Assembly (NCBI GenBank): GCA_964537405.1
Contig: CAZIBS010000004.1
Coordinates: 1-42,112 of the forward strand
Length of the DNA stretch: 42,112 bases
Reading direction: 5' to 3'
Source: an uncultured Thermoanaerobaculia bacterium
Lineage (GTDB): Bacteria > Acidobacteriota > UBA4820 > DSQY01
Position numbers and translations under genes: made by a program. Every line of letters starts with the position of its first letter. Within the stretch, counting starts at the first letter, position 1. Positions 735-22,380 of the stretch are shown here, one piece after another. Below the pieces are notes generated by a model. That model was not told the origin of the DNA and made no database searches. It was given only the letters and a program-made list of their open reading frames with translations.

Positions 735-1154
735 TCAGCCGCGGGTTGCCGCCCGCTTCGGTTCCACCTCTTCCTTGAGGAAGGCGACCACGTCTCCAGT
801 CGCGGTTCCGGGAGTAAAGACCTTCGCCACCCCGGCTTCAAGAAGACCCTGGATGTCTTCATCCGGAATGATGCCCCCTCCGAAGACGATTATGTCGTCG
901 GCGCCGTTTTCTCGCAGCAGTTTAATAATCTTCGGAAAAAGCGTGTTGTGGGCGCCGGAGAGGATGGAAAGCCCGATGGCATCGACATCTTCCTGGAGGG
1001 CCGTTGCCACGACCTGCTCGGGTGTCTGGTGCAAACCCGTATAGATGATCTCGTAACCCGCGTCGCGAAGGGCGCGGGCGATGATTTTTGCACCGCGATC
1101 GTGGCCGTCCAGGCCAACCTTTCCGATCAGAAGCTTCAACCGTCGTCCAGCCAT
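735..1154 (-). CDS. Stand-alone cobalamin (B12)-binding domain protein of the methylmalonyl-CoA mutase C-terminal domain type (small subunit)
   Basis: The 139-aa protein carries the canonical GLDGHDRGAKIIARAL ... DVDAIGLSILSGAH ... IVFGGGIIP signature of the MCM C-terminal B12-binding domain. A strong RBS (AGGAGGGAG) precedes the ATG at 1154. No mutase large subunit is adjacent. Confidence 0.8.
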   Translation of the reverse strand: MAGRRLKLLIGKVGLDGHDRGAKIIARALRDAGYEIIYTGLHQTPEQVVATALQEDVDAIGLSILSGAHNTLFPKIIKLLRENGADDIIVFGGGIIPDEDIQGLLEAGVAKVFTPGTATGDVVAFLKEEVEPKRAATRG

Positions 1155-1368
1155 TAACTCCCTCCTAAAAGATTATTATACTGTATTAGCAGGCTGAGAT
1201 AAAGTCATGTTCTCACCCTAAATCCACCACCTAAACCTGGATTCGCCTGCCTACCGCGTTGCGTGCAGGTGCGGCCTTTCCGCGCACCGGAGTGGGCCTT
1301 GAGCTTTTACTGGTTTTAGCTTATTGTAAATGTCTGTGCCCTGGCGGGCGATCGAGGTGGAGGGATCC

Positions 1369-2745
1369 ATGTACTGGTACTGGATTTGGATTGCAATTAT
1401 AGTCGTTGCCGTAGCCGTTTTAGTCGTCGTCTGGGCGAAGAGTTACCGGAAGGTCGGGCCGAACCAGGTGCTGGTCATCTCCGGTCGCACTTCAACCGTT
1501 ACGGGGCTGGACGGAAGGATCAAGAAAGTGGGGTACAGGCTCCAGGTGGGCGGCGGCACTCTGGTTGTGCCCTTCCTTGAGACAGTGGATGTTCTGCCCC
1601 TTGAAGTCTTTTCTCTCTCCATCAAGTGTCCGGAGGTTCTAACGGCGCAGGGAGTACTGATCACCGCCGAGGCGCAAGGCCAGATCAAGATTTGCTCCGA
1701 TGAGCCGTTGCTGCACAGGGCGGTGGAAAACTTCTTGTCGAAGGGTGCTTCCGGCATTACCTACGTGGCCCAAGAGGTTCTCGAAGGCCACGCACGCGGC
1801 ATCCTGGGTACAATGTCGGTGGAAGAGGTCTACGAGCAGCGCGAACACTTCTCTGAACTCGTGCGGGAGGCCGCGGCGGAAGATTACAGCCGGCTCGGCC
1901 TGGAACTCGTCTCCTTCTCGCTGAAGGATATAAGCGATACGCAGGACTACATTGCTTCCGTTGGTTCGCGGCGAATCGCGGAGGTCAGGCGCGACGCCGT
2001 CATCGCCAAGGCGGAGACGGAGCGCGATGCCTCCATTCGTTCGGCGGAGTATCGGAAGGAAGGAGACGTTGCCAAGCTCAAGGCCGAAGCGGAACTGGCA
2101 AGGGCGACGCGTGATTTCGAGGTCCAACGGGCGGAATACCAGATGGCTGTTAATGTCAAACGGGCGGGGGCGGACGTGGCTTACGACATTGAGCGTGCCA
2201 AGCTCTCGCGTGAGCTGAAGGAGCAGGAATACAACGTTCGCATCACCGAAAAGAAGATGGCCGCAAAGGTCGAGGAAGCGGAAGTCGCTCGGCGCGAGAT
2301 GGAACTCGAAGCCACCGTCAGGCGTCCGGCCGAGGCGATGAAGGATCAGGCAAAACTTGAAGCGGAGAGCGAAGCGTACCGCCTTGAACTCCAGGCGAAG
2401 GGCAAAGCAGCCGGCATCAAGCTGGCTGGACAGGCCGAAGCGTCGGCCATGCGGGACAAGGCGGAAGCGTGGCACGAGTACGGCGACGCAGCCTTCAGGG
2501 AGATGGCCATAAAGGGCCTGCCGGAACTCGCCCGCGCCGTTTCCGAGCCACTCTCCAAGGTGGACAAGATAATCATGGTTGGCAACGGCGACGGCGTTTC
2601 CAGGCTAACCGGGCAGGTCGCCTCGATCCTTGCGCAGCTTCCGGAGATCGTTGAAAACCTCTCCGGCATCAAGCTTCAGAACCTGGTGGGCGGCGCCGGT
2701 AAGTCCAAGGAAGAAGAGAAGAACCCGAAGGCCGATAAGACTTAA
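1369..2745 (+). CDS. Flotillin-like SPFH/band-7 protein
   Basis: It has an N-terminal TM helix (YWYWIWIAIIVVAVAVLVVVWA) and an SPFH core (VLVISGR ... LQVGGGTLVVPFLETV). A long Ala/Glu/Lys-rich coiled-coil follows (EAELARATRDFEVQRAEYQMAV ...), typical of flotillins. The start was chosen at ATG 1369, which has a GAGGTGGAGGG RBS; the ORF track start at 1330 is an alternative. Confidence 0.85.
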   Translation: MYWYWIWIAIIVVAVAVLVVVWAKSYRKVGPNQVLVISGRTSTVTGLDGRIKKVGYRLQVGGGTLVVPFLETVDVLPLEVFSLSIKCPEVLTAQGVLITAEAQGQIKICSDEPLLHRAVENFLSKGASGITYVAQEVLEGHARGILGTMSVEEVYEQREHFSELVREAAAEDYSRLGLELVSFSLKDISDTQDYIASVGSRRIAEVRRDAVIAKAETERDASIRSAEYRKEGDVAKLKAEAELARATRDFEVQRAEYQMAVNVKRAGADVAYDIERAKLSRELKEQEYNVRITEKKMAAKVEEAEVARREMELEATVRRPAEAMKDQAKLEAESEAYRLELQAKGKAAGIKLAGQAEASAMRDKAEAWHEYGDAAFREMAIKGLPELARAVSEPLSKVDKIIMVGNGDGVSRLTGQVASILAQLPEIVENLSGIKLQNLVGGAGKSKEEEKNPKADKT

Positions 2746-2820
2746 AATAAACGGCGTTCAGACCATGGAGAACGGCGATGGTGTCCGGGTCTCCGTGGGG
2801 GATTTTAAGGCGAGGCTGAT

Positions 2821-5160
2821 ATGCTCTCGGACCGTGTTAACCGTATCGGGTTTTCTCCAACGCTGCGAATAACGGCTAAGGCCAAACAGATGCGGGTTCA
2901 GGGAATCGACGTGGTGGACTTTTCGGTGGGGGAACCGGATTTTAATACCCCGGAAGCCGTCAAACGCGCGGCCAAGGCCGCTCTGGACGCCGACTTTACC
3001 AAGTACACCGCTAACGACGGTATACCGGAACTCAGGGCGGCCATCTGCGAAAAGCTGGAACGCGACAACAACCTCAAGTATGCCCCCAACGAGATAATCG
3101 TTTCGCCCGGCGCAAAAAACGACCTCTTCAACCTCATGCAGGCCCTGGTCGGTCCCGGCGACGACGTGATTGTTCCAACGCCATGCTGGGTCTCTTATCC
3201 TGACCAGGTAAGACTTGCGGGGGCGAACCCGGTTTTCGTGGAGACTCACGAGAACGAGGGCTTTCGCCTGGACGCGGGGGCGCTCTCCGACTCGGTGACT
3301 CCGAACACGAAGGCTATTATCCTCAACTATCCCTGCAATCCCACCGGGGCTTCCTACTCCAGGAAAGACCTGGAGGCGCTTGCCGAAGTCTGTCTCCGGG
3401 AGCAGATTTGGGTTGTAGCGGACGAAATATATGAGAAGCTTCTCTACGACGGGATGCGATTTACATCCATCGCCTCCGTGAGCGAGGCGATGAAAAAGTT
3501 GACCATAGTCGTGAACGGCTTTTCCAAGGCCTTTTCCATGACGGGTTGGAGGCTCGGTTACGCCGCCGGGCCGAGGGAAGTCATCGCGGCGTGCGGCAAG
3601 ATACAGTCCCACAACACCAGCAACGCCACCTCCTTCGTGCAGAAAGCCGCCGTAACGGCGCTTACCTCCTGTGCAATGGACGTGGAACGAATGCGACAGG
3701 AGTTCGAACGGCGCAGAAATTTTATGGTCGGCAAGCTGAGGAACCTACCGGAAGTGAGCTGCGTTTCGCCCTCCGGCGCCTTCTACCTGTTGCCGAATGT
3801 TAAAAGTTACCTTGGCAAGGAATACAAGGGCGCTCCCATCCGCAATTCCTACGGCCTCGCCTACTACCTCCTCAAGGAGGCCGCGGTTGCCGTGGTGCCC
3901 GGTGGCGCCTTCATGGCCGACGATTTTATTCGGGTCTCTTTTTCCACCTCCATGGATAGGCTCCAGGAGGGCGCCCGCAGAATCCGGGAGGCGCTTACGC
4001 GCCTCGAAGAACCTCGCCATGTGCGGCCGAGGGCGCTCAACAACGTTATCACCAAGGTTCGGGACTACGTAGAAACGCGCGCCGTCGCCGGGGCAGAGGA
4101 GCGAAACGAGCTGCTTGCCCTGGCGGAGCGCAGCCTCAAGCCGGACGCCTACTTTGAATGGAACGCGGTCATCGCGGGGGCGGTGGTCCAGTTGAGGACC
4201 AACTCCCCACACTTGGCGGACTTCTACCAGGAGAACTTCTATCCCTCGTCCCTCGAAAGCGACCTGGAACCGCACGCGGTTCTGTACGCCGTCAAGGATG
4301 TCGCCGATCGCGAAGCCCAGGCCCGCCTTAGCCTTGAAACGGGAACCGCCTATCTATTTAACTCGGCCTACTACGGTCAGGCCCGGATCCTCGCCCTCGC
4401 CCTCGCCGGCGAAGCTGCCTCCCGCGTATCGGGCGTTTTCCTTGCTCACTGCTCGGCGCTCGATAGAGACGGCCGCGGCGTTCTCGTCTGGGGGCTTCCG
4501 GGTTCGGGAAGAACCGGAGTGCTCGGCGCAGCGCTACACGCGGACGGAGTCAGGATGGTCGCCGGCGATGATATCATGGTGCGCTACACGACCTCCGGCC
4601 CCGTGGCCGACCTCCCGGAGAGAAAGTTCTACCTCAAGGCAAAGTGGGCAAAGTACCTTGGTGAAATCGACCGGCTGGCCGTAAGGTCAAAGGTGGAGAA
4701 CGCGGTGGTAAGAAGGGAGCAGTGTTCTATCGAATACTGTTCCGAACAGGACGTCTGCCCTCTGGATCTGGGAGCGGCGTGGTGCGGCAAGGCCTCCACT
4801 CACGGGCGCGTCATGCTGGATCCCTACTGGCTGGGCTGCGCCACGCGCCACGTTCGCAGGACCGCGCCGAAGCTGTGCGCCATCCTTGTGAATGACCCGG
4901 TCATACCGGCTCTCAAAGACCTTTCCCCGGGAGAAGCCGCGAGGTTGATCTCCGGCAACGGGAGTTCGGGAAGCGCCATTTTTGACCCTTCCCTTGCCGG
5001 CGCCATGGATCTTTCGCACCGGGACGCCCTTTTGACCCGCCACGAGGAACTCTTCGCCGGAACGAAGACCGTTCTCCTCAACACCGCCGTGGGTACGCCG
5101 GAGAGCGCCGCCGAACGGCTCCTGGACCTCTTGCCGGGGCCCGAACCCCGCTATGGTTGA
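2821..5160 (+). CDS. Class-I/II aspartate aminotransferase (aa 1 to about 395) fused to an HprK-like P-loop kinase-fold domain (aa about 400-779)
   Basis: The N-terminal half is a complete AspAT-type transaminase (GEPDFNTPEAVKRAA ... NYPCNPTG ... NGFSKAFSMTGWRLGY with the PLP lysine ... FIRVSF). The C-terminal half matches the HPr kinase/phosphorylase core layout (LAHCSALDRDGRGVLVWGLPGSGRTGVLGAALHADGVRMVAGDDIMV, compare HASaV ... GvLitGdSGvGKSe ... RGHrLVaDD). Its Walker-A reads GSGRT, with Arg in place of the canonical Lys. It is a single uninterrupted 779-codon frame. Confidence 0.8.
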   Translation: MLSDRVNRIGFSPTLRITAKAKQMRVQGIDVVDFSVGEPDFNTPEAVKRAAKAALDADFTKYTANDGIPELRAAICEKLERDNNLKYAPNEIIVSPGAKNDLFNLMQALVGPGDDVIVPTPCWVSYPDQVRLAGANPVFVETHENEGFRLDAGALSDSVTPNTKAIILNYPCNPTGASYSRKDLEALAEVCLREQIWVVADEIYEKLLYDGMRFTSIASVSEAMKKLTIVVNGFSKAFSMTGWRLGYAAGPREVIAACGKIQSHNTSNATSFVQKAAVTALTSCAMDVERMRQEFERRRNFMVGKLRNLPEVSCVSPSGAFYLLPNVKSYLGKEYKGAPIRNSYGLAYYLLKEAAVAVVPGGAFMADDFIRVSFSTSMDRLQEGARRIREALTRLEEPRHVRPRALNNVITKVRDYVETRAVAGAEERNELLALAERSLKPDAYFEWNAVIAGAVVQLRTNSPHLADFYQENFYPSSLESDLEPHAVLYAVKDVADREAQARLSLETGTAYLFNSAYYGQARILALALAGEAASRVSGVFLAHCSALDRDGRGVLVWGLPGSGRTGVLGAALHADGVRMVAGDDIMVRYTTSGPVADLPERKFYLKAKWAKYLGEIDRLAVRSKVENAVVRREQCSIEYCSEQDVCPLDLGAAWCGKASTHGRVMLDPYWLGCATRHVRRTAPKLCAILVNDPVIPALKDLSPGEAARLISGNGSSGSAIFDPSLAGAMDLSHRDALLTRHEELFAGTKTVLLNTAVGTPESAAERLLDLLPGPEPRYG

Positions 5161-5204: not shown

Positions 5205-5237
5205 ATGGTGTTTCACTCATCAAGGGATTGGTAGCCT
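5205..5237 (-). repeat. Partial (about 30 bp) terminal fragment of the roughly 100-bp MITE-like element (see 9303-9402, 38174-38270)
   Basis: GGTGTTTCACTCATCAAGGGATTGG matches the reverse complement of the copy-B end (GGTGTTTTACCCATCAAGGGATTGGGG). Confidence 0.45.
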
Positions 5238-5384
5238 TCTGGCCGAAGGCCAGGAAGGCGCCAAGGGCGGGGTAGGAAGTAGTTGTTCCCTCTCCATTCC
5301 AAGAGATGCTTTTTTTCCCGGTAGAAACACCCGCGATTCGAAGACGCTGGCGTTTCAATCGCGGAGATTAGGTGGAAAGGAGCC

Positions 5385-9402: not shown

Positions 9403-9813
9403 CAACCCGAATCCGCCACCTAACCGAGGGCCGGGGGCGGAGGGTAGGGCTTGGATGCTGGAACCTATCCCGGAATAAGACATGGCCGCGATAGATGGTG
9501 AGGAAGCGAACGAAGGCCGATGTGGTGCATCGGATGAGCAAGACGACAAAACCGGGTGCGCGGCCGGTCCCGCCCCTTCGGGTTGTCCTCCGGCCTGTCG
9601 CCTTCATTGTTCCCCCTTTTCCGAGTGTCCCCGGCACGCGTCGTCGGGACGCCTCGAATCCGTTCCGGCCGGAGGCGCAACGCGCCCGGAACTCCAGACA
9701 GGCGCAACGTGGTAGGCAGGCGAATCCCGGTTCAGGTGGTGGATCCATGAATGCTCCCCGCCTTGCCCCTTTGAGTGTGGTGCGCTATTCTCTCTGGGTC
9801 GGGAAGGGTTCGG

Positions 9814-12081
9814 ATGGCGCAAATAAGGAATGAAAAAGAGCTGAAAAATCCTCAGAAGCGGAAGAACGGGCCTCTCTATCCGTCGAACAAAGAGGCGGTC
9901 TTTTCGATAGGCCGTGAGGTGTTCGCCATCATTCTCTTCTCCGCCTCCCTCCTATCGGCGCTCTCCGTCGCCACCTTCCATCCCTACGATCCGGGCCCTT
10001 TTTCCTTCGGTACGGTGGCGCCGTCTCCTCAAAATTGGGTTGGGATAGCGGGGGCTTATTCGGCCTCGCTCATCGTTCATTTTCTGGGCCTCTGCGCTCC
10101 CTATGTGCCCATCTTTCTGGCCGTTTTAGGAATCCAGGTACTCAATCGCCGCTCCCTGGTGCGTCCATGGCGGTTGACCCTGTGGGCCTCAATGGTGCTT
10201 AGCCAGGTTACGTTCTTACAGTGGGCAATAGGCGAAATTCGCTTTTCTTTCTTCGGGCAGGAGGTTTCAGTCGCGTTGGGGGGGCTCCTCGGCTTGCTGG
10301 TGCTCAAGCTCCTCGAGGAGGAGATCGGCTTGGGCGGCGTCGTTGTCGTGCTGCCGTTGTGGGTATTGGTTACCCTGATGCTCTTCTTTCAATTTTCCTT
10401 TATGCGCCTGACCGCGCGAATCATGTCTCCCGCCGCGAAGCTGCTCTCAGCCTGGCGGGTTCGAAGAGAGAAGAAGAGGCATAGGGTTAACAGGAAGGAA
10501 AAACTCAACCAAATTAAAAGGAGGCAGGAGGAGCGAGTCGGAAAAAGGGAACGAGCCCTGAACGAGCGGCCGCTACCTATTTCAGAACGCAAGGAAACCG
10601 CTCCTGCGCTTCCCTTTGAGGCACCGCCCAACCACGGCTACCGCTTTCCGCCCGCGGATCTGCTTGATCCTCCCCGGCCTCACCCGCCAATCGATGAAAA
10701 GATTCTCAGGGAGTACGCGAATAAGATCGAAGGCCGGTTGAAGGAGTTTGACATTGAGGGCGAGGTAGTGGAGATTCATCCAGGACCGGTGGTGACGATC
10801 TTTGAGTTCAAGTCGGCGCCGGGTGTCAAGTACAGTCGAATCACCGCGCTTGAGCAGGATATAGCCATCTCCCTTAAAACCGATAGCATCCGCGTCGACA
10901 GGGTCAGTGGAAAATCCCACATCGGCATTGAGGTTCCAAACCGGAAGAGAGAACTCATCTCCTTCAGGGAACTCGTGGAATCGTCCGCCTTCGCCGAGAC
11001 CGAGGGGAAGCTTCCCCTGGCCCTGGGCAAGACGGTTGAGGGCCTTCCCTTCATAACCACGCTGGACAATATGCCGCACCTTCTCATAGCCGGAACGACC
11101 GGCTCCGGCAAGAGCGTCGGGTTGAACGCCATTATTCACAGCATCCTCTTTCGTTCGAATCCCGACGAAGTCAAGTTCATACTCGTAGATCCGAAGCAGG
11201 TTGAGCTGAAGGTTTACGAGGGGCTTCCCCACCTCCTGACGCCGGTAGTGACGGACGTAAAAAAGGCCGCCAACGCCCTGAACTGGGCGGTTAGGGAGAT
11301 GACGGAGCGTTACATGCTGCTGGCCTCCGCCAAGGTACGAAGTATAGACCAGTACAACGCCTACGTTCGCAGCCTGACCCCGCCCTCCGTTTTAGAACCC
11401 GGCGGCATCAACCGGCCGCTGCCATATATCGTAATCGTCATAGACGAACTCTACGACCTTATGGCGGTGGTGGCGCGGGATGTCGAGATGGCCATAGCCC
11501 GCCTCTCCGCGATGGCCCGCGCGGTTGGAATACACCTTATTCTGGCCACGCAGAGGCCCTCGCGCGACGTTATAACCGGCGTAATCAAAAGCAACTTGCC
11601 AAGCCGTATCGCCTTCCAGGTGCGGGAGAAGTTGGAGAGCCGTCTTATCCTCGACCAGAACGGGGCGGAGTCTCTCGAAGGCAAAGGAGATATGCTCTTC
11701 CTACCGCCGGGCTCAGGCCGCCTGATCAGAATTCACGGAGGATTTATCTCCAACGCCGAAACGCGGAGGGTTATCAAGTACCTCCGTGATCAGAGAGAAC
11801 CCGAATTCGACACCCGGATTCTCAAGGAAGGCCCCTCGCTTACCGGTGCTCCCGGCTCAACCGGAGGCGGTGAGCTGGAGGAAGACCCCCTGTACCGGGA
11901 CGCACTACGGCTTGTTGTGAAGACCGGAACGGCATCCGCAAGCAACCTCCAGCGCAAGTTGCGGATAGGTTACGCACGCGCCGCCCGTATACTGGACGTC
12001 ATGGAAAACCGGGGCATAATAGGACCCGCCGACGGCGCAAAACCGCGAGAGATACTTATAGAACCCGACGAGGTGGAGTAG
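9814..12081 (+). CDS. ftsK: DNA translocase FtsK/SpoIIIE
   Basis: It has N-terminal TM helices, a Pro-rich linker, and a motor domain with Walker A (LIAGTTGSGKSVGLNA) and Walker B (IVIVIDELYDLM). A C-terminal gamma domain is present (YRDALRLVVKTGTASASNLQRKLRIGYARAARILDVMENRGIIGP). The start was chosen at MAQIRNE (9814); the ORF track start at 9775 is possible. Confidence 0.9.
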   Translation: MAQIRNEKELKNPQKRKNGPLYPSNKEAVFSIGREVFAIILFSASLLSALSVATFHPYDPGPFSFGTVAPSPQNWVGIAGAYSASLIVHFLGLCAPYVPIFLAVLGIQVLNRRSLVRPWRLTLWASMVLSQVTFLQWAIGEIRFSFFGQEVSVALGGLLGLLVLKLLEEEIGLGGVVVVLPLWVLVTLMLFFQFSFMRLTARIMSPAAKLLSAWRVRREKKRHRVNRKEKLNQIKRRQEERVGKRERALNERPLPISERKETAPALPFEAPPNHGYRFPPADLLDPPRPHPPIDEKILREYANKIEGRLKEFDIEGEVVEIHPGPVVTIFEFKSAPGVKYSRITALEQDIAISLKTDSIRVDRVSGKSHIGIEVPNRKRELISFRELVESSAFAETEGKLPLALGKTVEGLPFITTLDNMPHLLIAGTTGSGKSVGLNAIIHSILFRSNPDEVKFILVDPKQVELKVYEGLPHLLTPVVTDVKKAANALNWAVREMTERYMLLASAKVRSIDQYNAYVRSLTPPSVLEPGGINRPLPYIVIVIDELYDLMAVVARDVEMAIARLSAMARAVGIHLILATQRPSRDVITGVIKSNLPSRIAFQVREKLESRLILDQNGAESLEGKGDMLFLPPGSGRLIRIHGGFISNAETRRVIKYLRDQREPEFDTRILKEGPSLTGAPGSTGGGELEEDPLYRDALRLVVKTGTASASNLQRKLRIGYARAARILDVMENRGIIGPADGAKPREILIEPDEVE

Positions 12082-12599: not shown

Positions 12600-13166
12600 A
12601 TGACCTTTTGGGATTACCTGATTTTGGTTCTTGGAGCGATCTTCGTGGTGGAGGGGCTCTTCAAAGGAGCCGTGCGGATCGCTTTCGGCCTCCTCGGCCT
12701 TTTTGCAGGCTACTTGTACGCAGGATTCGTAGCAACGCACGTCGCCCTGTACATGGGCTTCCTGCCGAAGGGTGCACGTCATCCGGTTGCGCTCTTTACC
12801 GGTTTCGTTCTCATCTTCGCCGCCTGCGTTCTGGCCGGAGTTCTTATCAACAAACTCGTAAAACACGGCGGCCTGGGACTCTTGAACCGTCTCCTGGGCG
12901 CATTTCTCGGCTTGCTCTTCATTATTTATCTCGCTGGAGGCCTCGTAAGGCTTTCCGAGCGGGTATCTCCCGCCTTCCACGACAGTCTTGTAAAAGGGCC
13001 GGTGGTGGGTTTTCTCTCCGGTTGGGCCGTTGGTCTTGAGGCACTTCTGCCCGAGCCGGTTCCGGGTTGCATTCCGCCTCCGCACGTTCCCCACCTTCCC
13101 CAAAAGGCCAAACCGTCGCAACCACACCCAAAACCAGTCTCTCCACGCCCCGGAGAAAAGGCGTGA
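12600..13166 (+). CDS. cvpA: CvpA-family membrane protein (colicin V production protein homolog)
   Basis: MTFWDYLILVLGAIFVVEGLFKGAVRIAFGLLGLFAGYLYA is a typical CvpA N-terminus, and four TM helices are predicted. An AAGGAG RBS precedes the ATG at 12600. It ends in a Pro-rich tail. Confidence 0.75.
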   Translation: MTFWDYLILVLGAIFVVEGLFKGAVRIAFGLLGLFAGYLYAGFVATHVALYMGFLPKGARHPVALFTGFVLIFAACVLAGVLINKLVKHGGLGLLNRLLGAFLGLLFIIYLAGGLVRLSERVSPAFHDSLVKGPVVGFLSGWAVGLEALLPEPVPGCIPPPHVPHLPQKAKPSQPHPKPVSPRPGEKA

Positions 13167-13188
13167 ACAACCCCTCGCTTGTCATCAT

Positions 13189-14305
13189 CATGGCTCTCCT
13201 TCTTCTCGCTCTGGTTCTTGCGCTCATCCTGACGCTCTTCAGGCTTCGCGCTTCTGTTCGGGCCGGAAACGATGGCGGCAGGGCTAAGGAAGAGCTGCTT
13301 GGCCGCGTGGCGGAGACCGACAAGCGGGTACTGGAACTCCAGGGCCTGCTGACGCAGCAACTCGCCGCTACCCAGCAGCTCCTGCAGGACCGGCTCTCCG
13401 GCCAGGAGAAGGCGCTGAGGGAACAAACCGCCCAGCAGGCAACGGCCTTCCAGGGACAAACGGGGCTGCTTCAGAAACATATGCAGGGCACGCAGAACAC
13501 CCTCTCCCTGGTAACCGAGAAGCTGGGAATGGTCCAGCAGGCATCCCGCCAAATGGTGGAGATGAGAAAAGAATGGGGAGAACTGCAACGGCTTCTCAAG
13601 GCGCCGAAGCTCCGGGGCCAGCTCGGAGAATTGGGTCTTGAAAGCCTCCTCTCCGACATTCTTCCACCCACCCGCGTGACCTACCAGTACGCCTTCAACG
13701 ACGGAAAGAAGGTGGACGCCATGATTCACCTTGAGCGTGGCTTACTGCCGATTGACGCCAAGTTTCCCATTGAGGACTTCCAGAACTACGTCGACGCTCC
13801 CAACGATCAGCGGGAGCAGAAGAGACGGGAGTTCAAGAATAACCTCAAGAAGAAAATCGATTCCATCTCGAAGCTCTACGTGAGACCCGGCGAAGGCACC
13901 TTGCCGCTGGCTCTCATGTACTTACCCGCCGAATCCCTCTACTACGAAGCTTTTGTGGCCAGGGAGCATGGGGACGAGGACCTGTGGACCTACGCCTTCG
14001 ACCGATCGGTACTACCCCTGTCCCCAGCCACCATGGTCGCCTACCTGAAGACGGTGGCAATGGGCCTCAAAGCGGCGTCGGTTGAAAAAAACGCAGGCAA
14101 GGTCCTTGAACTGCTTTCCACGCTTGAAAGGGACCTCGCCGCCTTCACAACCTCCCATGACGTTCTTGGAGGCCACATAGCCAAGGCCCACGCAAAGTTC
14201 CAGGAAAACCGGCAGGAACTCGGCGCCCTCGCGGCGCACCTTGGCCGCGCCCGGACTATAGGAGGCAAGCCCGAAGAAGAGGGCGAACCTCCCGGGGCGG
14301 ACTGA
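13189..14305 (+). CDS. rmuC: DNA recombination protein RmuC
   Basis: It has an N-terminal TM anchor (MALLLLALVLALILTLF), a long coiled-coil, and the RmuC core (GQLGELGLESLLSDILPP ... YQYAF ... VDAMIHLERGLLPIDAKFP ... LMYLPAESLYYEA). The start was taken at the ATG where the TM helix begins. Confidence 0.8.
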
Positions 14306-14426: not shown

Positions 14427-14801
14427 ATGAAAATAGCGGTAACCTCGCAGGGAAAGAATCTTGATGCTCCTGTTTCCCGGTGTTTCGGCCGCTCGTCCTA
14501 CGTCTTCGTGGCCGACACCGAAAGCCGCGTGGTCAAGATCATCGACAACCACGCCTTTGCACGGTTGAGTCTCGGCGCCGGTTCGAAGACGGCCGAGATG
14601 CTTGCTTTCCTGAGTGTACGGTGGGTGGCCACGGGTGAAATCGGACAAGAGGCCTTTGACATCCTCCACAACGGCGGCATAAAGGTGGTTGTCCGCGCTT
14701 CGGGCAGTTGCCGGGATATCCTGGACCGTCTCGACGCGGGTGGGCTCGAAGCCGCAGAAGGCCCCGCCAAACCGGTCGTGCAGCACCCCCCGAAGGAATA
14801 A
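14427..14801 (+). CDS. NifX/NifB/NafY-type dinitrogenase FeMo-cofactor-biosynthesis domain protein (stand-alone)
   Basis: The 124-aa protein reads [30 protein letters not shown] ... [38 protein letters not shown]. This is the conserved pattern of the Nitro_FeMo-Co domain. An RBS is present. Confidence 0.6.
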
Positions 14802-14832
14802 AGAGCGCGGAGAAGCGCCGACGGAGGAGGAT

Positions 14833-16869
14833 ATGAAGACCATCGACGAACTTTGCACCGACACCTTGAGGTTCCTGGCCGTAGACCAGATCGAAGAAGC
14901 GCATTCCGGTCATCCGGGACTCCCTCTGGGTGCGGCCCCAATGGCTTATGTTCTCTGGGACCGCTTTCTGCGCCACAATCCGGAGAATCCCAAGTGGTTC
15001 GACAGGGACCGCTTCATCCTCTCCGCCGGACACGGCTCCGCCCTACTCTATGCGCTACTCCACATGACCGGTTACAACCTTTCGCTCGACGAACTGAAAC
15101 GTTTTCGACAATTGGGTTCAAAAACTCCGGGCCACCCGGAACACAACCTGACGCCCGGCGTCGAGGCAACAACCGGTCCCCTCGGCCAGGGTTTTGCCAT
15201 GGGCGTCGGAATGGCGATTGCTGAAGCCAACCTCGCCGCCCGCTTCAACCGCCCGGGCTATGAAGTCGTAAACCACTACACCTATGCCATCGTCTCCGAC
15301 GGCGACCTGATGGAGGGCGTCTCCTCCGAGGCTGCTTCGCTCGCCGGAAGGCTGCACCTGGGCAAACTTGTCTACCTCTACGACGACAACGGAATCACCA
15401 TTGAGGGCGATACCTCGATAACCTTCACCGAAGATGTCGGGGGGCGCTTTGAATCATACGGTTGGCAGGTATTGAAGGTTGACGATGGAAACGATTTCTC
15501 CGCACTGGTGGCTGCCATCGGCGACGCACGGGAGGAACCGGAACACCCATCGCTGGTCATCGTCAAAACCCATATAGGTTTCGGCAGCCCGAAACAGGAC
15601 TCTGCCGCCGCCCACGGTTCGCCACTGGGACCAATGGCGGCCAAAGCCACAAAGGATGCCGCCGGTTGGCCTTCAGGGGAGGCCTTCCACGTGCCGGAGG
15701 AGGCCGGGGAGCACATGAGGCTCGCCATCCGGCGCGGCGAAGGATGGGAGAACCGGTGGAAGATGACCGTAGGAACCTACAGGGTGGACTACCCCGAACT
15801 CGCCGCGGCCTTCCTTGAAGCTACGGAGGGAAGGCTTCCAGAGGGCTGGGAGGAGGCGCTGCCCAACTTCGGTGTCGGGGATGGGCCAATCGCGACGAGG
15901 AATGCCTCCGGTATCGTACTGAATGCTCTCGCCGCCAGGATTCCTTCCCTCGTAGGAGGTTCCGCCGACCTCACGCCCTCGAACAAGAGTTCCATCAAGG
16001 AATCGCCGGGCTTCTTTCCAGGGAGCTACGAGGGGCGCAACCTTCACTTCGGCATTCGCGAATTCGCCATGGGCGCCGCCGTTAACGGCATAGCCCTTCA
16101 CGGCGGCCTTATTCCTTACTGCGCCACTTTTCTTGTTTTCAGCGACTACGCGAGACCCGCCCTCAGACTGGCCGCCCTCATGCAGTGTCCTTCCATTTTT
16201 CTCTTCACCCACGACAGCATCCACGTTGGAGAGGACGGCCCGACGCACCAGCCCATCGAGCAACTTATGAGTCTCAGGCTGATACCGGGTCTCTGCGTAT
16301 GGAGGCCCGCCGACGCCAATGAAACCGCCGCGGCCTGGGGTACCGCCCTGAAGCTCAAACGGCCTGCGGTCCTGGTATTAACGAGGCAGAAGCTACCCGT
16401 TCTATCGCCCGGAGCGCAGCAAATCAGCGGCGGTACGGCCAGGGGCGGCTATACCATTCGGGACGCGGGTGCAAAAAAACCCCAGGTTGTAATCGTGGCT
16501 ACCGGCAGCGAAGTTCATCTGGCCCTTGAGGCGCGTTCCGAACTCTCGGCGAAGGAGATAAGCGCCAGGGTCGTCTCAATGCCGTGCCGGGAACTTTTCG
16601 AGGAAGCGCCCACCTCTTACAAAGAAGAGATTCTACCGCCCGGAGTGCCAAGACTGGTCATAGAGGCAGGGCGTACATTGGGATGGGAGGGTTACGCGGG
16701 CGACGGGGGAGCGATCCTGGGGATAGACCGTTTCGGTGTCTCCGCGCCCGGCAACATCGTTGCGGAACACCTGGGCCTTACGGTGGACAGGGCCGTAGAA
16801 ATTGCCGTACGGCTCGTGAGCGACCATCCCGTTATTCCTCCGGTCCACTCCACCGTGCCGGAGCCGTGA
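14833..16869 (+). CDS. tkt: Transketolase
   Basis: It has the ThDP-binding motifs ([19 protein letters not shown] ... [16 protein letters not shown] ... [14 protein letters not shown] ... [18 protein letters not shown]). The GGAGGAGGAT RBS precedes the ATG at 14833; the ORF track start at 14689 is an upstream extension. Confidence 0.9.
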
Positions 16870-17546: not shown

Positions 17547-18710
17547 GTGGGCGTGCCTTTTCTGGATTTGACGAGGCAGTACGAAACGATCAGGGAAGAG
17601 ATCGGGGGTGTTCTTACACAAGTGCTTGAAACGCAGCGCTTTGTCCTTGGACGCTTCGTTCGCTCCCTGGAAGAGGAAATCTCCGAATACATCGGAACGG
17701 GCCACGCGATCGGCGTGGCTTCCGGCACCGACGCTCTGCTGCTTGGCCTCAGGGCGCTGGGACTTAAGCGAGGTGAGGGAGTTATCACCTCAACCTTCAC
17801 TTTCTTCGCAACCGCGGGGGCCATCCACAACGCCGGGGGGCACCCCTTCTTTCTGGACATAGACCCGGAAAGCTTCAACCTCTCTCCCGCGGCCGTTGGA
17901 ACCTTCCTACGCGAAGAGTGCGTAAGGGGCGACGATGGATTGCCCGTACATCGCAAAAGCGGGGCGATTGTCAGGGCGATCCTTCCGGTTCACCTCTACG
18001 GCCTTTGCGCCGATATGGACGCACTGAACGACCTCGCGGGTGAATACGGGCTCCGCGTTCTTGAAGACGCCTGCCAGGCTATTGGTTCCACCTATCATCG
18101 GAGGAAGGCCGGCGCACTCGGCGACATCGCCGCCTTCTCTTTCTTCCCCACGAAGAACCTGGGAGGGGCGGGCGACGGCGGCATGGTGACGACCGACGAC
18201 GACGCCCTTGCGCAAAAGCTGGCCCTCCTGAGGGTTCACGGAAGCAGTAAACGCTACATCCACGAAGTCATAGGCTACAATTCCAGGCTCGACGAGCTTC
18301 AGGCGGCGGTACTGGGAGTAAAGCTCAGGCATCTCGACGAGTGGAACGCCGGACGAAATCGTATAGCCGGTTTCTATAGAGAGGGCTTGGCTGACGTCGA
18401 AGGGGTAAGAACACCTTTGTTTCATGAGGGTTTTGGCCAAATCTTCCACCAGTTTGTTATACGAACCACGCACAGGGATGAGTTGAAAGCCTATCTCGAC
18501 GAGAGGGAAATAGGCGCCATGATTTACTACCCGGTCCCACTCCACCTCCAGCCCTGTTTTCATTTCCTGGGCTACCGCGAGGGAGACTTCTCCGAAGCGG
18601 AGTCGGCCTCAAGGGAAGTCCTGGCTCTTCCCATCTTTCCCGAACTGACCGAGGCCGAAGCAACAGAGGTCTGCGATGTTGTCAGGGACTTCCACGCGGG
18701 GAGAGACTGA
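17547..18710 (+). CDS. DegT/DnrJ/EryC1/StrS-family PLP-dependent sugar aminotransferase
   Basis: The N-terminus IPFLDLTRQYETIREEI, the motifs GTDALLLGLRALGL ... ILPVHLYG ... SFFPTKNLGGAGDGGMV (PLP lysine in FPTKN) identify the family. A GTG start has a strong GGAGGTG RBS. Confidence 0.85.
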   Translation: MGVPFLDLTRQYETIREEIGGVLTQVLETQRFVLGRFVRSLEEEISEYIGTGHAIGVASGTDALLLGLRALGLKRGEGVITSTFTFFATAGAIHNAGGHPFFLDIDPESFNLSPAAVGTFLREECVRGDDGLPVHRKSGAIVRAILPVHLYGLCADMDALNDLAGEYGLRVLEDACQAIGSTYHRRKAGALGDIAAFSFFPTKNLGGAGDGGMVTTDDDALAQKLALLRVHGSSKRYIHEVIGYNSRLDELQAAVLGVKLRHLDEWNAGRNRIAGFYREGLADVEGVRTPLFHEGFGQIFHQFVIRTTHRDELKAYLDEREIGAMIYYPVPLHLQPCFHFLGYREGDFSEAESASREVLALPIFPELTEAEATEVCDVVRDFHAGRD

Positions 18711-19228
18711 TGTTGTCGGACCTCTCTAATGCTCACCGGGTTTGGGGAGTCTTCTCCGTCAAGCCGCGCCATGAGAAACTGAATGAGGTCTTTCTCTCGC
18801 AGGAAGGTTTTAACTACTACTGTCCCCGGCTGAAGAGACGCAAGGGAGAGGAGAGCGGACCGCCTCTCTTCCCGGGCTACATCTTCGTACTGCTCTCTCC
18901 CAAGGTGGAACTGGGCCGGGTAAAATTTTTTCCGGGCATGCTGCACCCGCTTCTCTTCGGCGGCCTGCTTGCGTACATCAACCCGGAAGTCGTGGAGTGC
19001 TGGAAGAAGAGGGAGGCCGGCAGGGGCTACCTTGCGCCGGAGCCGAAAGCGGCCTTCAAGGTAGGACAGAAGGTCCGTTTTACCGAGGGCGCTTTCACCG
19101 GTCTCGAAGGCATGGTTCTGGAGGACCTCCCCGCGAAGGATCGAGTGCGCATACTCCTGGAATACCTCAGGATGAGCGTTACCGTTGAAACCGACCGCAC
19201 GGCCGTAAAAATGCCCCCGGCGCGATGA
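18710..19228 (+). CDS. NusG-paralog transcription antiterminator (UpxY/LoaP/RfaH-like specialized NusG)
   Basis: It has an NGN domain (VWGVFSVKPRHEKLNEVFLSQEGFNYYCP ... PLFPGYIFVLL). A KOW motif follows (FKVGQKVRFTEGAFTGLEGMVLE ... RVRILLEYLRMSVTVE). The ATG overlaps the DegT stop (TGATG). Confidence 0.7.
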   Translation: MLSDLSNAHRVWGVFSVKPRHEKLNEVFLSQEGFNYYCPRLKRRKGEESGPPLFPGYIFVLLSPKVELGRVKFFPGMLHPLLFGGLLAYINPEVVECWKKREAGRGYLAPEPKAAFKVGQKVRFTEGAFTGLEGMVLEDLPAKDRVRILLEYLRMSVTVETDRTAVKMPPAR

Positions 19229-19268
19229 TGGCGGAGAAAGTATTCATTCCGCGGATGGAAGAGATGAA

Positions 19269-20306
19269 ATGACAAAAAACTTCGGAGTTGCAATCCTGGC
19301 GGGTGGGAAGGGAACACGCCTCTGGCCGCTCAGTACCGCCGACGAACCCAAGCCCTTCGTTTCCCTCGGGCCCCTGGGGCGTCTCTACAACAGAACGGTC
19401 GAACGCGCGCAGGCACTCAACCCCGCTTTCGTTGCAACGGTAGGCGCCCCCTTGCTGGAAAGATTCTGCGGGGCGCCCGGCGTCGAATTCCTGGCGGAGC
19501 CATGCGCCCGGAACACGGCCGCGGCCGTCGCCCTCGCCGCCGTTTACAGCCGACGCAAACTGGGCGAGGACGGCGGCCTCCTTATCCTGCCGGCGGACCA
19601 CTTCATCAGGGACGCAGCCGCCTTTGCGGCAACCGTACGCAAACTGGCCGGGCTCTGCGATAAGAGGCGATCATTGGGGGTCATGGGCATCACGCCGACC
19701 GGGCCTGAAACGGCCTACGGCTACATTGAGAGCGGTCTTCCCGCCGGGGAGGGCTTCGAAGTGGCGCGGTTCATCGAAAAACCGGACATTGAAGGCGCCG
19801 TAAAACTACTGCGGCAGGGTAATACGACGTGGAACTCGGGAATGTTCTACTTCCCCGTCGGAGTACTTCGGGAGGAGATGCGGCTTTACTGTCCGGAGCC
19901 ATGGAACGCGGCGCAACGGTGGCTCGAAAATGGCGCCCCCGGCTCTTACCAGGCGTTGCGGAAGGTATCGATCGACTACGCCCTCATGGAAAAGAGTCGG
20001 AGGGTTTCAATGGTTGCAGCCGCTTTCGACTGGAGCGATGTCGGTACCTTTCCCTCTCTATATAATATCCTGCCAAAAGACGCGCAGGGCAACGCCGGAT
20101 GGGGTCCAGGCCGCGTCTCGGATTGCCGTAACTGCCTTATCGTAACGCGGCGAAGCAATACCCTGGTAAGGACCATGTCGGAGAGCGTGGTAGTAGAAAC
20201 CGAACACGGGCTGATGGTCAGTCCGATGAAGGGAGCGGCGGAGATTCGTGAAGAGGTGGAGTCGCTGCTCAACGACGCCGGCGGAACGGATAAGGAGAAG
20301 CCATGA
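19269..20306 (+). CDS. Mannose-1-phosphate guanylyltransferase-like sugar-phosphate nucleotidyltransferase
   Basis: It has the NTP-transferase N-terminus (VAILAGGKGTRLWPLS) and the LILPADHFIRD motif. Its length and layout resemble ManC-type enzymes lacking the isomerase domain. Confidence 0.65.
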   Translation: MTKNFGVAILAGGKGTRLWPLSTADEPKPFVSLGPLGRLYNRTVERAQALNPAFVATVGAPLLERFCGAPGVEFLAEPCARNTAAAVALAAVYSRRKLGEDGGLLILPADHFIRDAAAFAATVRKLAGLCDKRRSLGVMGITPTGPETAYGYIESGLPAGEGFEVARFIEKPDIEGAVKLLRQGNTTWNSGMFYFPVGVLREEMRLYCPEPWNAAQRWLENGAPGSYQALRKVSIDYALMEKSRRVSMVAAAFDWSDVGTFPSLYNILPKDAQGNAGWGPGRVSDCRNCLIVTRRSNTLVRTMSESVVVETEHGLMVSPMKGAAEIREEVESLLNDAGGTDKEKP

Positions 20307-21016
20307 AGGGCATAGTGCTTGCGGGCGGAACGGGGTCCCGTCTCTATCCATTGACCAAGGTAACGAACAAACACCTTTTGCCGGTCGGCAAGAAACCGAT
20401 GATCTACTACCCGATCGAGAAGCTCCTGGCGGCGGGAATCAACACGATCCTCATCGTTACCGGAACGGAACACATGGGCTCGGTCGTGAGCCTGCTGGGT
20501 TCGGGGAAAGACTTTGATTGCTCATTTACCTACAAGGTCCAGGACCAGGCGGGAGGAATCGCGCAGGCGCTGAGCCTCGCCGAAAACTTTTCCGGGGGAA
20601 GTTCTATCGCCGTAATACTTGGCGACAACCTCTTTGAGGACAGCCTGACCCCCTTTGTCAGGCACTTTGAAGAGGTGCAGGGTGAAGAGGGCGCCCGCAT
20701 CGTTCTAAAGGGTGTTCCCAACCCCACTCGCTTCGGCGTCGCCACCCTGAAGGGCGACAGGGTTATCAAAATAGAGGAGAAACCAAAGGCGCCGGAAACC
20801 GATTGGGCGGTTACCGGGCTCTACCTCTACGATGCGGAGGTCTTCGAAATAATCCGAACCCTCAAACCCAGCGGGCGCGGGGAACTCGAAATTACCGATG
20901 TAAACAATGCCTACATAGACAGGGGGCTGATGGGCTACGATCTAATGGATGGTTGGTGGACCGACGCCGGCACTTTCGAGAGCCTGAGCCAGGCAAATAA
21001 ACTCATAGGAGAGTGA
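20303..21016 (+). CDS. Short-form glucose-1-phosphate thymidylyltransferase-like nucleotidyltransferase
   Basis: It has MKGIVLAGGTGSRLYPLTKVTNKHLLPVGKKPMIYYPIEKL ... AVILGDNLF and is 237 aa. It sits immediately before the rmlC/rmlD/rmlB-like genes. Its start overlaps the stop of the upstream gene. Confidence 0.7.
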   Translation: MKGIVLAGGTGSRLYPLTKVTNKHLLPVGKKPMIYYPIEKLLAAGINTILIVTGTEHMGSVVSLLGSGKDFDCSFTYKVQDQAGGIAQALSLAENFSGGSSIAVILGDNLFEDSLTPFVRHFEEVQGEEGARIVLKGVPNPTRFGVATLKGDRVIKIEEKPKAPETDWAVTGLYLYDAEVFEIIRTLKPSGRGELEITDVNNAYIDRGLMGYDLMDGWWTDAGTFESLSQANKLIGE

Positions 21017-21019
21017 ACC

Positions 21020-21478
21020 GTGATTCACGACGTGAAGGTAAAGAAACTGACGGTCATTCCCGACGACAGGGGTCGCCTGATGGAAATGCTGAGGGCGGAT
21101 GACGAACTCTTCGACAAATTCGGGCAGGTCTACCTCTCCACCACCTACCCCGGCGTAATTAAAGCGTGGCACTACCACAAGCTGCAGAAAGACAACTTCG
21201 TCTGCGTAAGGGGGATGGTAAAACTTGTCCTGGCCGATACCAGGGACGGTTCCCCATCCAAGGGAGAGGTAGCCGAGTTCGTTATAGGGGAGCACAATCC
21301 CCTCCTTGTGCAGGTTCCGATCGGGGTTTACCACGGCTGGAAGTGCCTCGGAAACCGGGAGTCCTTCGTGGTAAACCTGACAACCAACACTTACAACTAC
21401 GATGATCCCGACGAGTATAGGCTCGATCCCCATAACAACGGCCTGATAGACTACGACTGGGCGACAAAGGATCGTTAA
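21020..21478 (+). CDS. dTDP-4-dehydrorhamnose 3,5-epimerase-like cupin protein
   Basis: The 152-aa cupin has RGMVKLVLADTRDGSPSKGE ... YHGWKCLGNRESFVVNL, resembling RmlC core strands. It has a GTG start and sits between the thymidylyltransferase-like and rmlD genes. Confidence 0.65.
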   Translation: MIHDVKVKKLTVIPDDRGRLMEMLRADDELFDKFGQVYLSTTYPGVIKAWHYHKLQKDNFVCVRGMVKLVLADTRDGSPSKGEVAEFVIGEHNPLLVQVPIGVYHGWKCLGNRESFVVNLTTNTYNYDDPDEYRLDPHNNGLIDYDWATKDR

Positions 21479-22332: not shown

Positions 22333-22380
22333 AGAAGCGGCCTTAAGGTTACCGGGCCGCCCCGCAAAGTAAGGAGAACA

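Follow-up and report, generated by a model that had tools for sequence, protein, structure and literature searches.

An aspartate aminotransferase fused to a compact relative of PEP carboxykinase and encoded beside a flotillin gene

The fusion gene and its surroundings

The window, i.e. the whole stretch of DNA analysed here (42,112 nt), contains a single ORF at 2821..5160 (+) that starts with ATG and encodes 779 aa followed by a stop codon, as the preliminary description had reported. An RBS-like AAGGCGAGG can be read from the sequence at 2807..2815 (+), 5 nt before the ATG. The encoded protein consists of an aspartate aminotransferase (AspAT), a linker and a C-terminal domain related to PEP carboxykinase (PEPCK), which we call mini-PEPCK; the current annotation, 'pyridoxal phosphate-dependent aminotransferase', overlooks half of it. 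Directly upstream, across a 75-bp gap, lies a flotillin/SPFH gene (1330..2745, +; Pfam Band_7, 4e-26, and Flot), before which a promoter scan gave a weak sigma-70-like match (1154..1182, +). About 70 nt past the stop codon of the fusion gene, a G+C-rich hairpin (5228..5264, +; z -1.96) is a weak candidate for the transcript end, and a terminator scan found no consensus terminator.

The fusion, which had been flagged as unusual, recurs widely. Scanning a single genome from each species gave 53 loci, 45 of which encode a full-length two-part protein (~776-800 aa) in one uninterrupted ORF, and the same fusion is also present on many metagenome contigs. An exact-sequence lookup with the window protein found no record. 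In principle, the ORF could unite two neighbouring genes, one for an aminotransferase and one for a hypothetical protein, through faulty sequencing, faulty assembly or an overlooked stop where they meet. A small number of related records are indeed split or frameshifted (e.g. locus L033), and the gene call in locus L061 is divided into 289 + 482 aa. Against this stand the uninterrupted ORFs in the genomes of 45 species, which were assembled independently and span several phyla, and on the metagenome contigs, a linker with invariant residues, and a composition without a break. We give such an artefact a negligible chance, and mis-assembly or a missed stop is effectively refuted on comparative grounds. 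The fusion is thus a real, widely conserved gene, because 45 of the 53 loci carry it as one two-part ORF and its junction contains invariant residues.

Flotillin is a conserved partner of the fusion gene: it lies upstream in 43 of 49 fusion loci, with gaps of mostly 2-122 bp, including loci from Aminicenantales (L042) and Zixibacteria (L039 and L061). Within the Thermoanaerobaculia, this synteny may be partly inherited rather than selected. A full-length PEPCK is encoded beside the fusion in many lineages, and an NDK gene is a neighbour in three; the 42,112 nt of the window contain no PEPCK gene. Around the stand-alone relatives whose contexts were inspected (P0162, P0163 and P0178) and around P0173, no consistent partner was found, with NDK present once.

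The aminotransferase half and the linker

Residues 1-395 (2821..4005, +) form a class Ib AspAT domain, as judged from Pfam PF00155, NCBIfam and PDB matches and from motifs. Residues 30-388 match PF00155 above threshold (E 9e-77, 259 bits), and the PLP lysine together with the cofactor and substrate motifs (GAKN at 97, NPTG at 173, DEIY at 201, SKAFSMTGWR at 235, IRVSF at 370) places the domain in subgroup Ib of the class I/II aminotransferases. The PLP lysine is K236 (codon at nt 3526-3528), inside SKAFSMTGWR, and the block SKAFSMTGWRLGY, quoted earlier as the PLP-lysine block, is found at aa 235-247. The best PDB relatives are Ib AspATs (6f35, 4e-102; 1j32; 1bjw; 5wmh). Residues 2-395 align end to end with the enzymes of Thermus thermophilus (1bjw), Phormidium (1j32) and Rhizobium (AatA/AatB, 6f77/6f35) and with the plant Asp/prephenate aminotransferase (5wmh), at E 1e-91 to 4e-102, sharing the PLP-Lys, NPTG, DEIY, TGWR, IRVSF and the GAK Lys. 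Unlike the window protein, these solved or curated class Ib AspATs all lack a C-terminal extension. The alignments and motifs thus show an intact class Ib AspAT (L-Asp + 2-oxoglutarate <-> oxaloacetate + L-Glu). NCBIfam aspartate aminotransferase models score 400-408 bits on this half, under their equivalog cutoffs (NF041091, 408.6 versus 550; NF004769, 400.6 versus 617). Because the score falls under the cutoff (408 versus 550), it does not fix the exact amino-donor and keto-acid specificity, and aspartate is the likely substrate, as opposed to prephenate or another compound.

The linker (aa 396-435; 4006..4125, +) is conserved, with invariant L406, N408, T411 and R428 and a mean pairwise identity of 69 % inside the clade. 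Up to about aa 412 it is disordered or of low confidence in both AF2 models. The full-length model is poor (pLDDT 61, pTM 0.52) because the alignment barely covers the N-terminus of the AspAT, and it is uninformative on domain packing.

A compact relative of PEP carboxykinase

The preliminary description had read the C-terminal region as an HprK-like P-loop domain. This holds for the P-loop block, which in sequence is closest to HprK/P (1ko7, E 4e-6), and does not hold for the domain as a whole, which is PEPCK-like. Pfam gave no hits on aa 391-779, and neither Pfam nor NCBIfam yielded a PEPCK match there even at E <= 10. The hhalign comparison with PckA was significant (98.8 %, E 8.2e-17), with profile homology along the domain over 326 columns. 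Relatives match NF006821 or PF01293 only under threshold, and phmmer against the PDB returned nothing but P-loop noise from AAA ATPases for this region. Searching with E. coli PckA added no profile depth, since all sequences retrieved were >86 % identical; the PEPCKs neighbouring the fusion loci were used for the profile instead. The profile alignment shows that the C-terminal half belongs to the PEPCK lineage, in a compact form of ~350 aa that matches PckA 93-465 and includes both parts of the two-domain PEPCK fold (an N-terminal domain and a P-loop nucleotide domain). We are nearly certain of its assignment, by fold and homology, as a shrunken relative of PEPCK.

The N-subdomain (aa 436-540; 4126..4440, +) aligns with PckA ~117-229 and contains the blocks YFEWNA, QLRTNSPH, ENFYP and LEPH and a YYGQAR loop. 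In that loop, Y517/Y518 correspond to Y207, R522 to K212 and I523 to K213, in a register that may be off by one; here and below, residues are mapped on PckA by the hhalign alignment and not by structural superposition. Its invariant polar residues E446, N448, R459, H464, E471, H485 and R497 have no known role in PckA. A match of QLRTNSPH to the Arg65 loop of PckA (GRSPKD) was rejected, since hhalign aligns this motif with PckA ~133-146 and mini-PEPCK has no Arg65 region. The nucleotide-binding subdomain (aa 541-779; 4441..5157, +) aligns with PckA ~230-465. Compared with the ATP-dependent PEPCKs (PckA; PF01293, TIGR00224; 1oen/1aq2/1ii2; ~540 aa), mini-PEPCK lacks PckA 1-92, including Arg65, and the last ~75 residues (466-540). 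The adenine-binding elements are not retained: the Arg449 loop is shorter, the adenine loop is incomplete, and six residues are deleted at the GTGKRISIKDTR loop.

The active-site set of PckA comprises R65, K212, K213, H232, K254, D269, K288 and R333 (after Matte 1996; PMC13147460, which lists Lys288), and Lys254 contacts the beta/gamma phosphoryls (PMC2684135). This set is not present as a whole. In the window clade, H232, D269, K288 and R333 are kept, together with a Tyr at 207 and Thr255; K212 and K254 are conservatively replaced by Arg; K213 is Ile in the window and Ser or Thr in relatives; R65 has no counterpart, and D268 and S250 are lost. The individual equivalents are His543 (4447..4449, +; the Mn ligand His232), Asp583 (4567..4569, +; the kinase-2 metal ligand Asp269, D/E in all fusion sequences), the block ERKFYLK at aa 600-606 (4618..4638, +; PckA FEGGCYAK, with E600-R601-K602 invariant) and Arg663 (4807..4809, +; Arg333, in 43/43 sequences of the clade). 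These equivalents are at least 93 % conserved in the window clade, versus 66 % overall identity of the subdomain. A cysteine cluster, C635-x4-C640-x5-C646-x8-C655 (4723..4785, +), replaces the DGTIDFDDGSKTEN surface loop of PckA. C646 and C655 are present in 60/60 sequences, C635 in 59 and C640 in 35; sequences without C640 have a His just upstream instead, in the examples inspected. The region has reduced pLDDT in the AF2 model, and this Cys3(Cys/His) pattern is probably a Zn site.

The Walker-A/kinase-1a loop GLPGSGRTG (aa 558-566; 4492..4518, +) carries the Arg described earlier: Arg564 (AGA, nt 4510-4512) corresponds to PckA Lys254, and Thr565 to Thr255. Both Lys and Arg occur among related fusions, dividing them into an Arg-type clade (43 sequences, including the window) and Lys-type fusions (16). 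Position 543 is His in 41 of the 43 Arg-type sequences and Arg in 15 of the 16 Lys-type fusions, while position 606 (Lys288) is Lys in the Arg-type clade, Pro or Gln in the Lys-type fusions and Arg in the stand-alone relatives. Relative to the latter, whose P-loop, His and Asp set is fully canonical, the window clade has thus undergone a reciprocal swap (564 Lys to Arg, 606 Arg to Lys). In these alignments, the Arg-for-Lys P-loop is a maintained, compensated and lineage-fixed change. As a natural compensated Walker-A variant, it offers a clean test case for the role of the P-loop lysine in phosphoryl transfer. An isolated, inactivating K->R change was rejected on codon and co-variation evidence. 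In the Lys-type fusions, the Arg333 equivalent also varies (R9 H4 Y2 Q1) and the P-loop Lys is at times followed by Ala or Gln; a canonical PEPCK mechanism therefore cannot apply across the whole family, as these fusions vary at the His232, Lys288, Arg333 and post-Lys positions.

The C-terminal strings quoted earlier (CSAL-DRDGR-GVLVWGLPGSGRTG-V-LGAALHADGVRMVAGDD) are all found in the ORF. The HprK/P Walker A (G-x-S-G-x-G-K-S, with the catalytic Lys) reads G-L-P-G-S-G-R-T in the window. Only ~140 residues of HprK/P (PF07475, TIGR00679; 1ko7, 1jb1) superpose on the window domain, the whole-protein HprK/P fold is not matched, the HprK N-terminal domain is missing, outside the superposed residues the domain is PEPCK-like, and no Pfam/TIGRFAM model matches at threshold. 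PF07475 (Hpr_kinase_C) gave no match on the window protein, and relatives of this protein reach 19-26 bits versus a cutoff of 33.3. The neighbouring genes in the window and at related loci include neither HPr (ptsH) nor a CcpA-type partner. HprK-related kinases A and B (TIGR04352, TIGR04355) and ScmC (TIGR04249, PF27840) are uncharacterised HprK-like proteins of peptide-modification cassettes, named in their TIGRFAM descriptions for PqqD-like, radical-SAM or ATP-grasp partners; such partners are absent from the flotillin/PEPCK/NDK context. Stand-alone members are similar in size (350-570 aa), and the matches are weak and partial, at 16-32 bits against cutoffs of 125-200: on the window protein, HprK_rel_A reaches E 5.7e-6 and 25.6 bits over 69 residues only (cutoff 200 bits) and HprK_rel_B E 0.005, while ScmC matches of the stand-alone relatives are weak or faint. 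Clustering at 50 % identity leaves about 1,200 representatives of the mini-PEPCK family, an unannotated family that bridges PEPCK and HprK-type kinases and on which no curated model reaches its threshold.

Possible roles at the aspartate/oxaloacetate/PEP node

Oxaloacetate is unstable and is part of the PEP-pyruvate-oxaloacetate node, where the choice between gluconeogenesis, anaplerosis and amino-acid metabolism is made. As the best explanation, held tentatively and just short of an even call, we propose that the fusion protein has two functions at the aspartate/oxaloacetate/PEP node. The C-terminal pocket would still bind a phosphoryl donor, a divalent metal and a C4/C3 keto-acid. That it remains functional for ligand binding is quite likely; that it acts on oxaloacetate/PEP we favour slightly; that mini-PEPCK is itself catalytic is plausible but somewhat doubtful. 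With such a pocket, the fused module would take over the labile oxaloacetate of the transaminase and convert it toward PEP by a PEPCK-type decarboxylative phosphoryl transfer, or the route could run from PEP + CO2 via oxaloacetate to Asp. The phosphoryl donor may be other than ATP, as the adenine-binding elements are missing. The fusion would be co-transcribed with the flotillin scaffold, and the module would have as its partner, in many lineages, the full-length PEPCK of the neighbouring gene. Against catalysis by the module, a further PEPCK activity would seem superfluous where an intact PEPCK is encoded alongside.

In the literature searched, no account of an AspAT/mini-PEPCK fusion turned up, and a search on ScmC and HprK-related proteins gave unrelated results only. 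The data suggest that central metabolism has an enzyme module, not described before, where aspartate, oxaloacetate and PEP meet, and a conserved covalent AspAT-PEPCK-type link beside PEPCK and flotillin, in several poorly studied and mostly uncultured phyla, would rewire this node in a new way. In its boldest form, which we consider unlikely, the module would be an unrecognised minimal PEPCK-like class that takes Asp to PEP (or PEP + CO2 to Asp) without release of oxaloacetate, using a rebuilt Arg/Lys phosphate pocket and a phosphoryl donor that may lack adenine or may not be a nucleotide at all, and that forms, with full-length PEPCK on a flotillin scaffold, a membrane-associated oxaloacetate-channelling metabolon.

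Two other readings concern the function. The module could be a non-catalytic PEPCK paralogue, serving as an adaptor that docks the AspAT onto full-length PEPCK (and the flotillin scaffold) for oxaloacetate hand-over, or as a sensor through which bound PEP, oxaloacetate or a nucleotide would allosterically tune the AspAT. We consider such a pseudo-enzyme somewhat unlikely, since no residues of the subdomain are better conserved in the window clade than the active-site equivalents, the Lys/Arg changes are compensated and non-random where pseudo-enzymes usually let such residues drift, and the stand-alone relatives keep their canonical residues. Alternatively, the substrate could be something other than oxaloacetate, given the many invariant N-subdomain polar residues that have no known PckA role. 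The module would then belong to the PEPCK/HprK superfamily as a kinase or phosphotransferase whose target is another small molecule, or a protein or peptide Ser as in HprK/P, HprK-related proteins and ScmC, e.g. regulating the transaminase, PEPCK or flotillin. We rate this as quite improbable; it draws on the P-loop block, which is nearest to HprK/P and HprK_rel_A/B, on the weak matches of relatives to PF07475, TIGR00679 and ScmC/PF27840, on the absence of R65 beside so many family-specific invariant residues, and on the NDK genes adjacent in three lineages, which suggest nucleotide use. Of the functions considered here, it is the one nearest to that of the preliminary description.

A two-part protein in a single reading frame

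The preliminary description reported a single 779-codon ORF (2821–5160), and this ORF is present as described, on the forward strand, with an ATG start and a ribosome-binding-like site (AAGGCGAGG) five bases 5′ of it. A survey of one genome per bacterial species yielded 53 loci, 45 of which encode the complete two-part protein as one unbroken ORF of about 776–800 aa, and metagenome proteins show the same architecture. The majority of carriers are MAGs of Thermoanaerobaculia or other Acidobacteriota (65–72% identity), with out-group fusions in Zixibacteria (loci L037 and L039, 48–49%), Caldithrix (L041, 45%), Aminicenantales (L042, 45%) and Ignavibacteria (L049, 42%). The junction shows no break in base composition in the window, and four linker residues (L406, N408, T411 and R428) are invariant. 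Given the unbroken ORFs across species, the metagenome proteins and the invariant linker, a mis-assembly or missed stop at the junction is excluded for practical purposes. On one Thermoanaerobaculaceae contig, part of the C-terminal subdomain is present a second time (L043:13592–14464, forward strand), about 3.3 kb 3′ of the full fusion. This shorter copy begins slightly ahead of the P-loop, extends to the C-terminus, retains GSGRT and shares ~52% identity with the window protein; it could represent a duplicated fragment, a pseudogene or a repeat introduced in assembly.

The N-terminal half (aa 30–388) matches Pfam PF00155 (E 9e-77), and its top NCBIfam models are aspartate aminotransferases (AspATs), at 408 bits, below the equivalog cutoff of 550. 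Among solved structures, this half comes closest to class Ib AspATs, namely those from Rhizobium (AatB, 6f35, 4e-102), Phormidium (1j32) and Thermus (1bjw) and the plant Asp/prephenate aminotransferase 5wmh. The PLP-lysine block noticed earlier (SKAFSMTGWRLGY) is found at aa 235–247, and the motifs that serve cofactor and substrate binding in AspATs are intact (GAKN 97, NPTG 173, DEIY 201, K236 and IRVSF 370). The substrate of this half is likely aspartate. Literature searches found no description of the fusion, and its database name is only 'pyridoxal phosphate-dependent aminotransferase'; we rate the architecture, an AspAT joined to a PEPCK-like module, as new.

The C-terminal half as a miniature PEPCK

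The C-terminal half was at first described as HprK-like, with the string CSAL-x5-GVLVWGLPGSGRTG-x-LGAALHADGVRMVAGDD, which is indeed present, its P-loop occupying aa 558–566. A Pfam search with aa 391–779 matched no model; among curated models, only HprK_rel_A (25.6 bits against a cutoff of 200) and HprK_rel_B gave a match. Against PDB sequences, the family profile matches HprK/P (E 4e-6), confined to a 55-residue block around the P-loop, and the ATP-PEPCK 1ii2 (E 0.033). A confident AlphaFold2 model (18 homologues; pLDDT 85.6, pTM 0.86) compares best with 1ii2 (score 27.1, 332 of 389 residues), followed by GTP-PEPCK (20.3, 340), the Euglena complex-I subunit NDUEG2 (18.6, 270), PPi-PEPCK (15.2, 353) and four HprK/P entries (12.3–12.8, 138–154). 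Foldseek against PDB gave the same outcome, all top 35 matches being ATP-PEPCKs (E about 1e-16). We aligned 22 mini-PEPCK family sequences by hhalign with a PEPCK alignment made up of the E. coli and enterobacterial PckAs, the PEPCKs encoded nearby in the loci and the PEPCK portion of the related protein P0173. This gave 98.8% probability (E 8e-17) over 326 aligned columns, pairing protein residues 419–773 (query 15–369, in a region starting at residue 405) with PckA 93–465. Stand-alone relatives match the NCBIfam PEPCK subfamily NF006821 (E 1e-6 to 3.5e-18).

Rather than an HprK domain, the C-terminal half is thus a miniature PEPCK; it does resemble HprK, but only across the nucleotide-binding subdomain common to HprK/P and PEPCK. 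Within the PEPCK/HprK superfamily, the protein belongs clearly to the PEPCK side. It differs from PEPCK proper in failing the model thresholds and lacking R65/K213 and the adenine site, and from HprK/P in threshold, Walker-A signature, whole-protein fold and partners. The wider family comprises about 1,202 representatives (E ≤ 1e-3, 50%-clustered library), to which no curated model matches at threshold, and we rate this minimal PEPCK-like family as new. In P0173 (L055:6001–8700, 899 aa), a degenerate mini-PEPCK copy with the P-loop GSSENDIAT precedes a complete PEPCK that scores above the NF006821 cutoff. Its neighbourhood contains V4R-domain and (faint) TFIIE-alpha-like Pfam matches.

The PckA active-site set consists of R65, K212, K213, H232, K254, D269, K288 and R333 (PMC13147460), with the functions of K254 and of the XKK motif's second Lys described in PMC2684135; mutant structures at the same residues occur among the Foldseek PDB matches. 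Mapped through the hhalign alignment, H232, T255, D269, K288 and R333 are kept (H543, T565, D583, K606 and R663), as is Y207 (Y517/Y518, with the register possibly off by one), while K212 and K254 are conservatively changed to R522 and R564. Lost are K213 (I523, Ser/Thr in relatives), S250 (P560) and D268 (G582). PckA 1–92, including R65, and 466–540 are without counterpart in the window protein, and QLRTNSPH was on this ground rejected as the R65 loop. Compared with PckA, the R449 adenine loop lacks six residues, and the loss of adenine elements suggests that the phosphoryl donor may differ from the usual one.

Where PckA has the surface loop DGTIDFDDGSKTEN, the window protein has a cysteine cluster, C635-x4-C640-x5-C646-x8-C655 (4723–4785, aa 635–655). 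Three of these cysteines are essentially invariant and the fourth is Cys in 35 of 60 sequences; most of the others lack it, with a His just upstream in the examples inspected. The cluster is probably a structural Zn site, or may have a redox or Fe-S role. It is missing from the stand-alone relative P0033.

Arginine in the Walker-A loop

The phosphate loop reads GSGRT, as first noticed, with Arg at 564 in all ~40 Acidobacteriota species and Lys in most out-groups. The Arg564 codons differ among species (AGA, CGC, CGG, AGG, CGA and CGT), which shows that selection acts on the protein to keep Arg. Within the clade, pairwise identity averages 0.70 in the mini-PEPCK (0.80 in its N-subdomain) versus 0.80 in the AspAT half; judged by sequence, the domain is not decaying. 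Arg-type fusions conserve R522 (43/43), H543 (41/43), R564 (43/43), T565 (41/43), D/E583 (43/43), K606 (40/43) and R663 (43/43). In Lys-type fusions, R663 (R9 H4 Y2 Q1) and the residue that follows the P-loop Lys have drifted.

Arg-type (42) and Lys-type (16) fusions are fixed for different residues at positions that include three PckA active-site equivalents: 543 (H vs R), 564 (R vs K) and 606 (K vs P/Q). Across the wider family, whose members mostly stand alone, the P-loop is canonical, typically APTGTGKST, with Lys in 83 of 109 representatives and H,K,R as the commonest triple at these positions. The series runs from H,K,R in stand-alone proteins to H,R,K in the window clade, R,K,P in Lys-type fusions and R,M,K in the Met-P-loop variant P0018, so that nearly every variant has one Lys and one Arg, except L039 (N,R,P). 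We read Arg564 as probably one half of a compensated Lys/Arg exchange in a maintained phosphate-binding pocket, not as simple inactivation, and rate this naturally compensated Walker-A change as new.

Neighbouring genes and possible function

The most conserved neighbour is a flotillin/SPFH gene (1330–2745 in the window, forward strand; Pfam Band_7 and Flot), which immediately precedes the fusion in the same orientation in 43 of 49 loci, or 43 of the 45 with enough upstream sequence, mostly with gaps of 2–122 bp. These loci span Acidobacteriota and Zixibacteria, and include L002, Aminicenantales L042, Zixibacteria L039 and also L061; no NfeD-type partner was seen. Co-transcription would pair a membrane-scaffold protein with a transaminase/PEPCK-like enzyme of the cytosol. 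Transcription-unit signals are weak: a promoter-like site 5′ of the flotillin gene, a hairpin 3′ of the fusion stop codon, and no terminator found between the two genes. In 28 of the 49 loci, a full-length PEPCK_ATP-family gene (~610–630 aa, Pfam E 2e-26), with every catalytic residue intact, occurs no more than 8 kb away. It lies upstream in 26 (mostly annotated Acidobacteriota/Thermoanaerobaculia), on the opposite strand in 24 of these, and immediately 3′ on the same strand (gaps roughly 20–80 bp) in L041, L042 and L061, the latter two with the order flotillin-fusion-PEPCK. The window, covering 2.8 kb upstream of the fusion, contains no PEPCK gene. NDK adjoins the domain in three unrelated contexts, following fusion and PEPCK in Caldithrix (L041:4332–4769), following the fusion P0018 (L062:1516–1932) and preceding the stand-alone relative P0162 (L058:4325–4825), which hints at use of a non-adenine nucleotide.

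The best-supported reading starts from what is established, namely the fold, the homology, the conserved and co-varying residues and the linked genes, and is that of an AspAT with a fused PEPCK-type oxaloacetate/PEP conversion, its ligand and catalysis being predicted. The transaminase half would make (or consume) oxaloacetate, which would be decarboxylated and phosphorylated to PEP in the fused pocket, or formed by the reverse reaction, in concert with the neighbouring full-length PEPCK. The pocket would bind metal through H543 and D583 and the phosphoryl group through R564, T565, K606, R663 and E600-R601-K602, and would carry the Tyr/basic loop specific to PEPCKs (Y518, R522). The main rival, which we hold to be rather unlikely, is that this half is a PEPCK paralogue without catalytic activity, serving to dock AspAT onto PEPCK and flotillin or to sense PEP, oxaloacetate or a nucleotide. 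The absence of R65, K213 and D268, its redundancy where an intact PEPCK is encoded nearby and the dead copy that P0173 carries speak for it, while codon use, conservation and co-variation point to a changed, maintained pocket. Distinctly less probable still is a protein/peptide kinase, or a substrate unrelated to oxaloacetate; weak HprK/ScmC similarities and many family-specific invariant residues in the N-subdomain speak for this.

Upstream of the flotillin gene, the window has a reverse-strand enoyl-CoA hydratase-family ORF (195–728), matching part of its Pfam profile only, and a small stand-alone B12-binding-domain protein (735–1154, reverse strand). Most relatives have PEPCK or a His_Phos_1 phosphatase on this side, and the neighbourhood is therefore rearranged in the window genome. 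The B12-binding-domain protein, HlyIII, GDSL lipase, FadL and FtsK have no evident link to the fusion. Further along lies a forward-strand sugar-nucleotide/O-antigen-type cluster (17547–24452) with a DegT/DnrJ/EryC1 aminotransferase (17547–18710), two nucleotidyl transferases (19269–21016), RmlD (21478–22332) and two GDP-mannose-dehydratase/epimerase-family genes (22381–24452). Housekeeping genes encode FtsK (9775–12081), RmuC (13067–14305), transketolase (14689–16869), a Mur ligase (25638–27128), an AMP-binding enzyme (29684–31555) and RecG (31530–33674), and a reverse-strand gene (38247–40826) encodes an 859-aa radical-SAM protein with Radical_SAM_N2 and DUF2344 domains.
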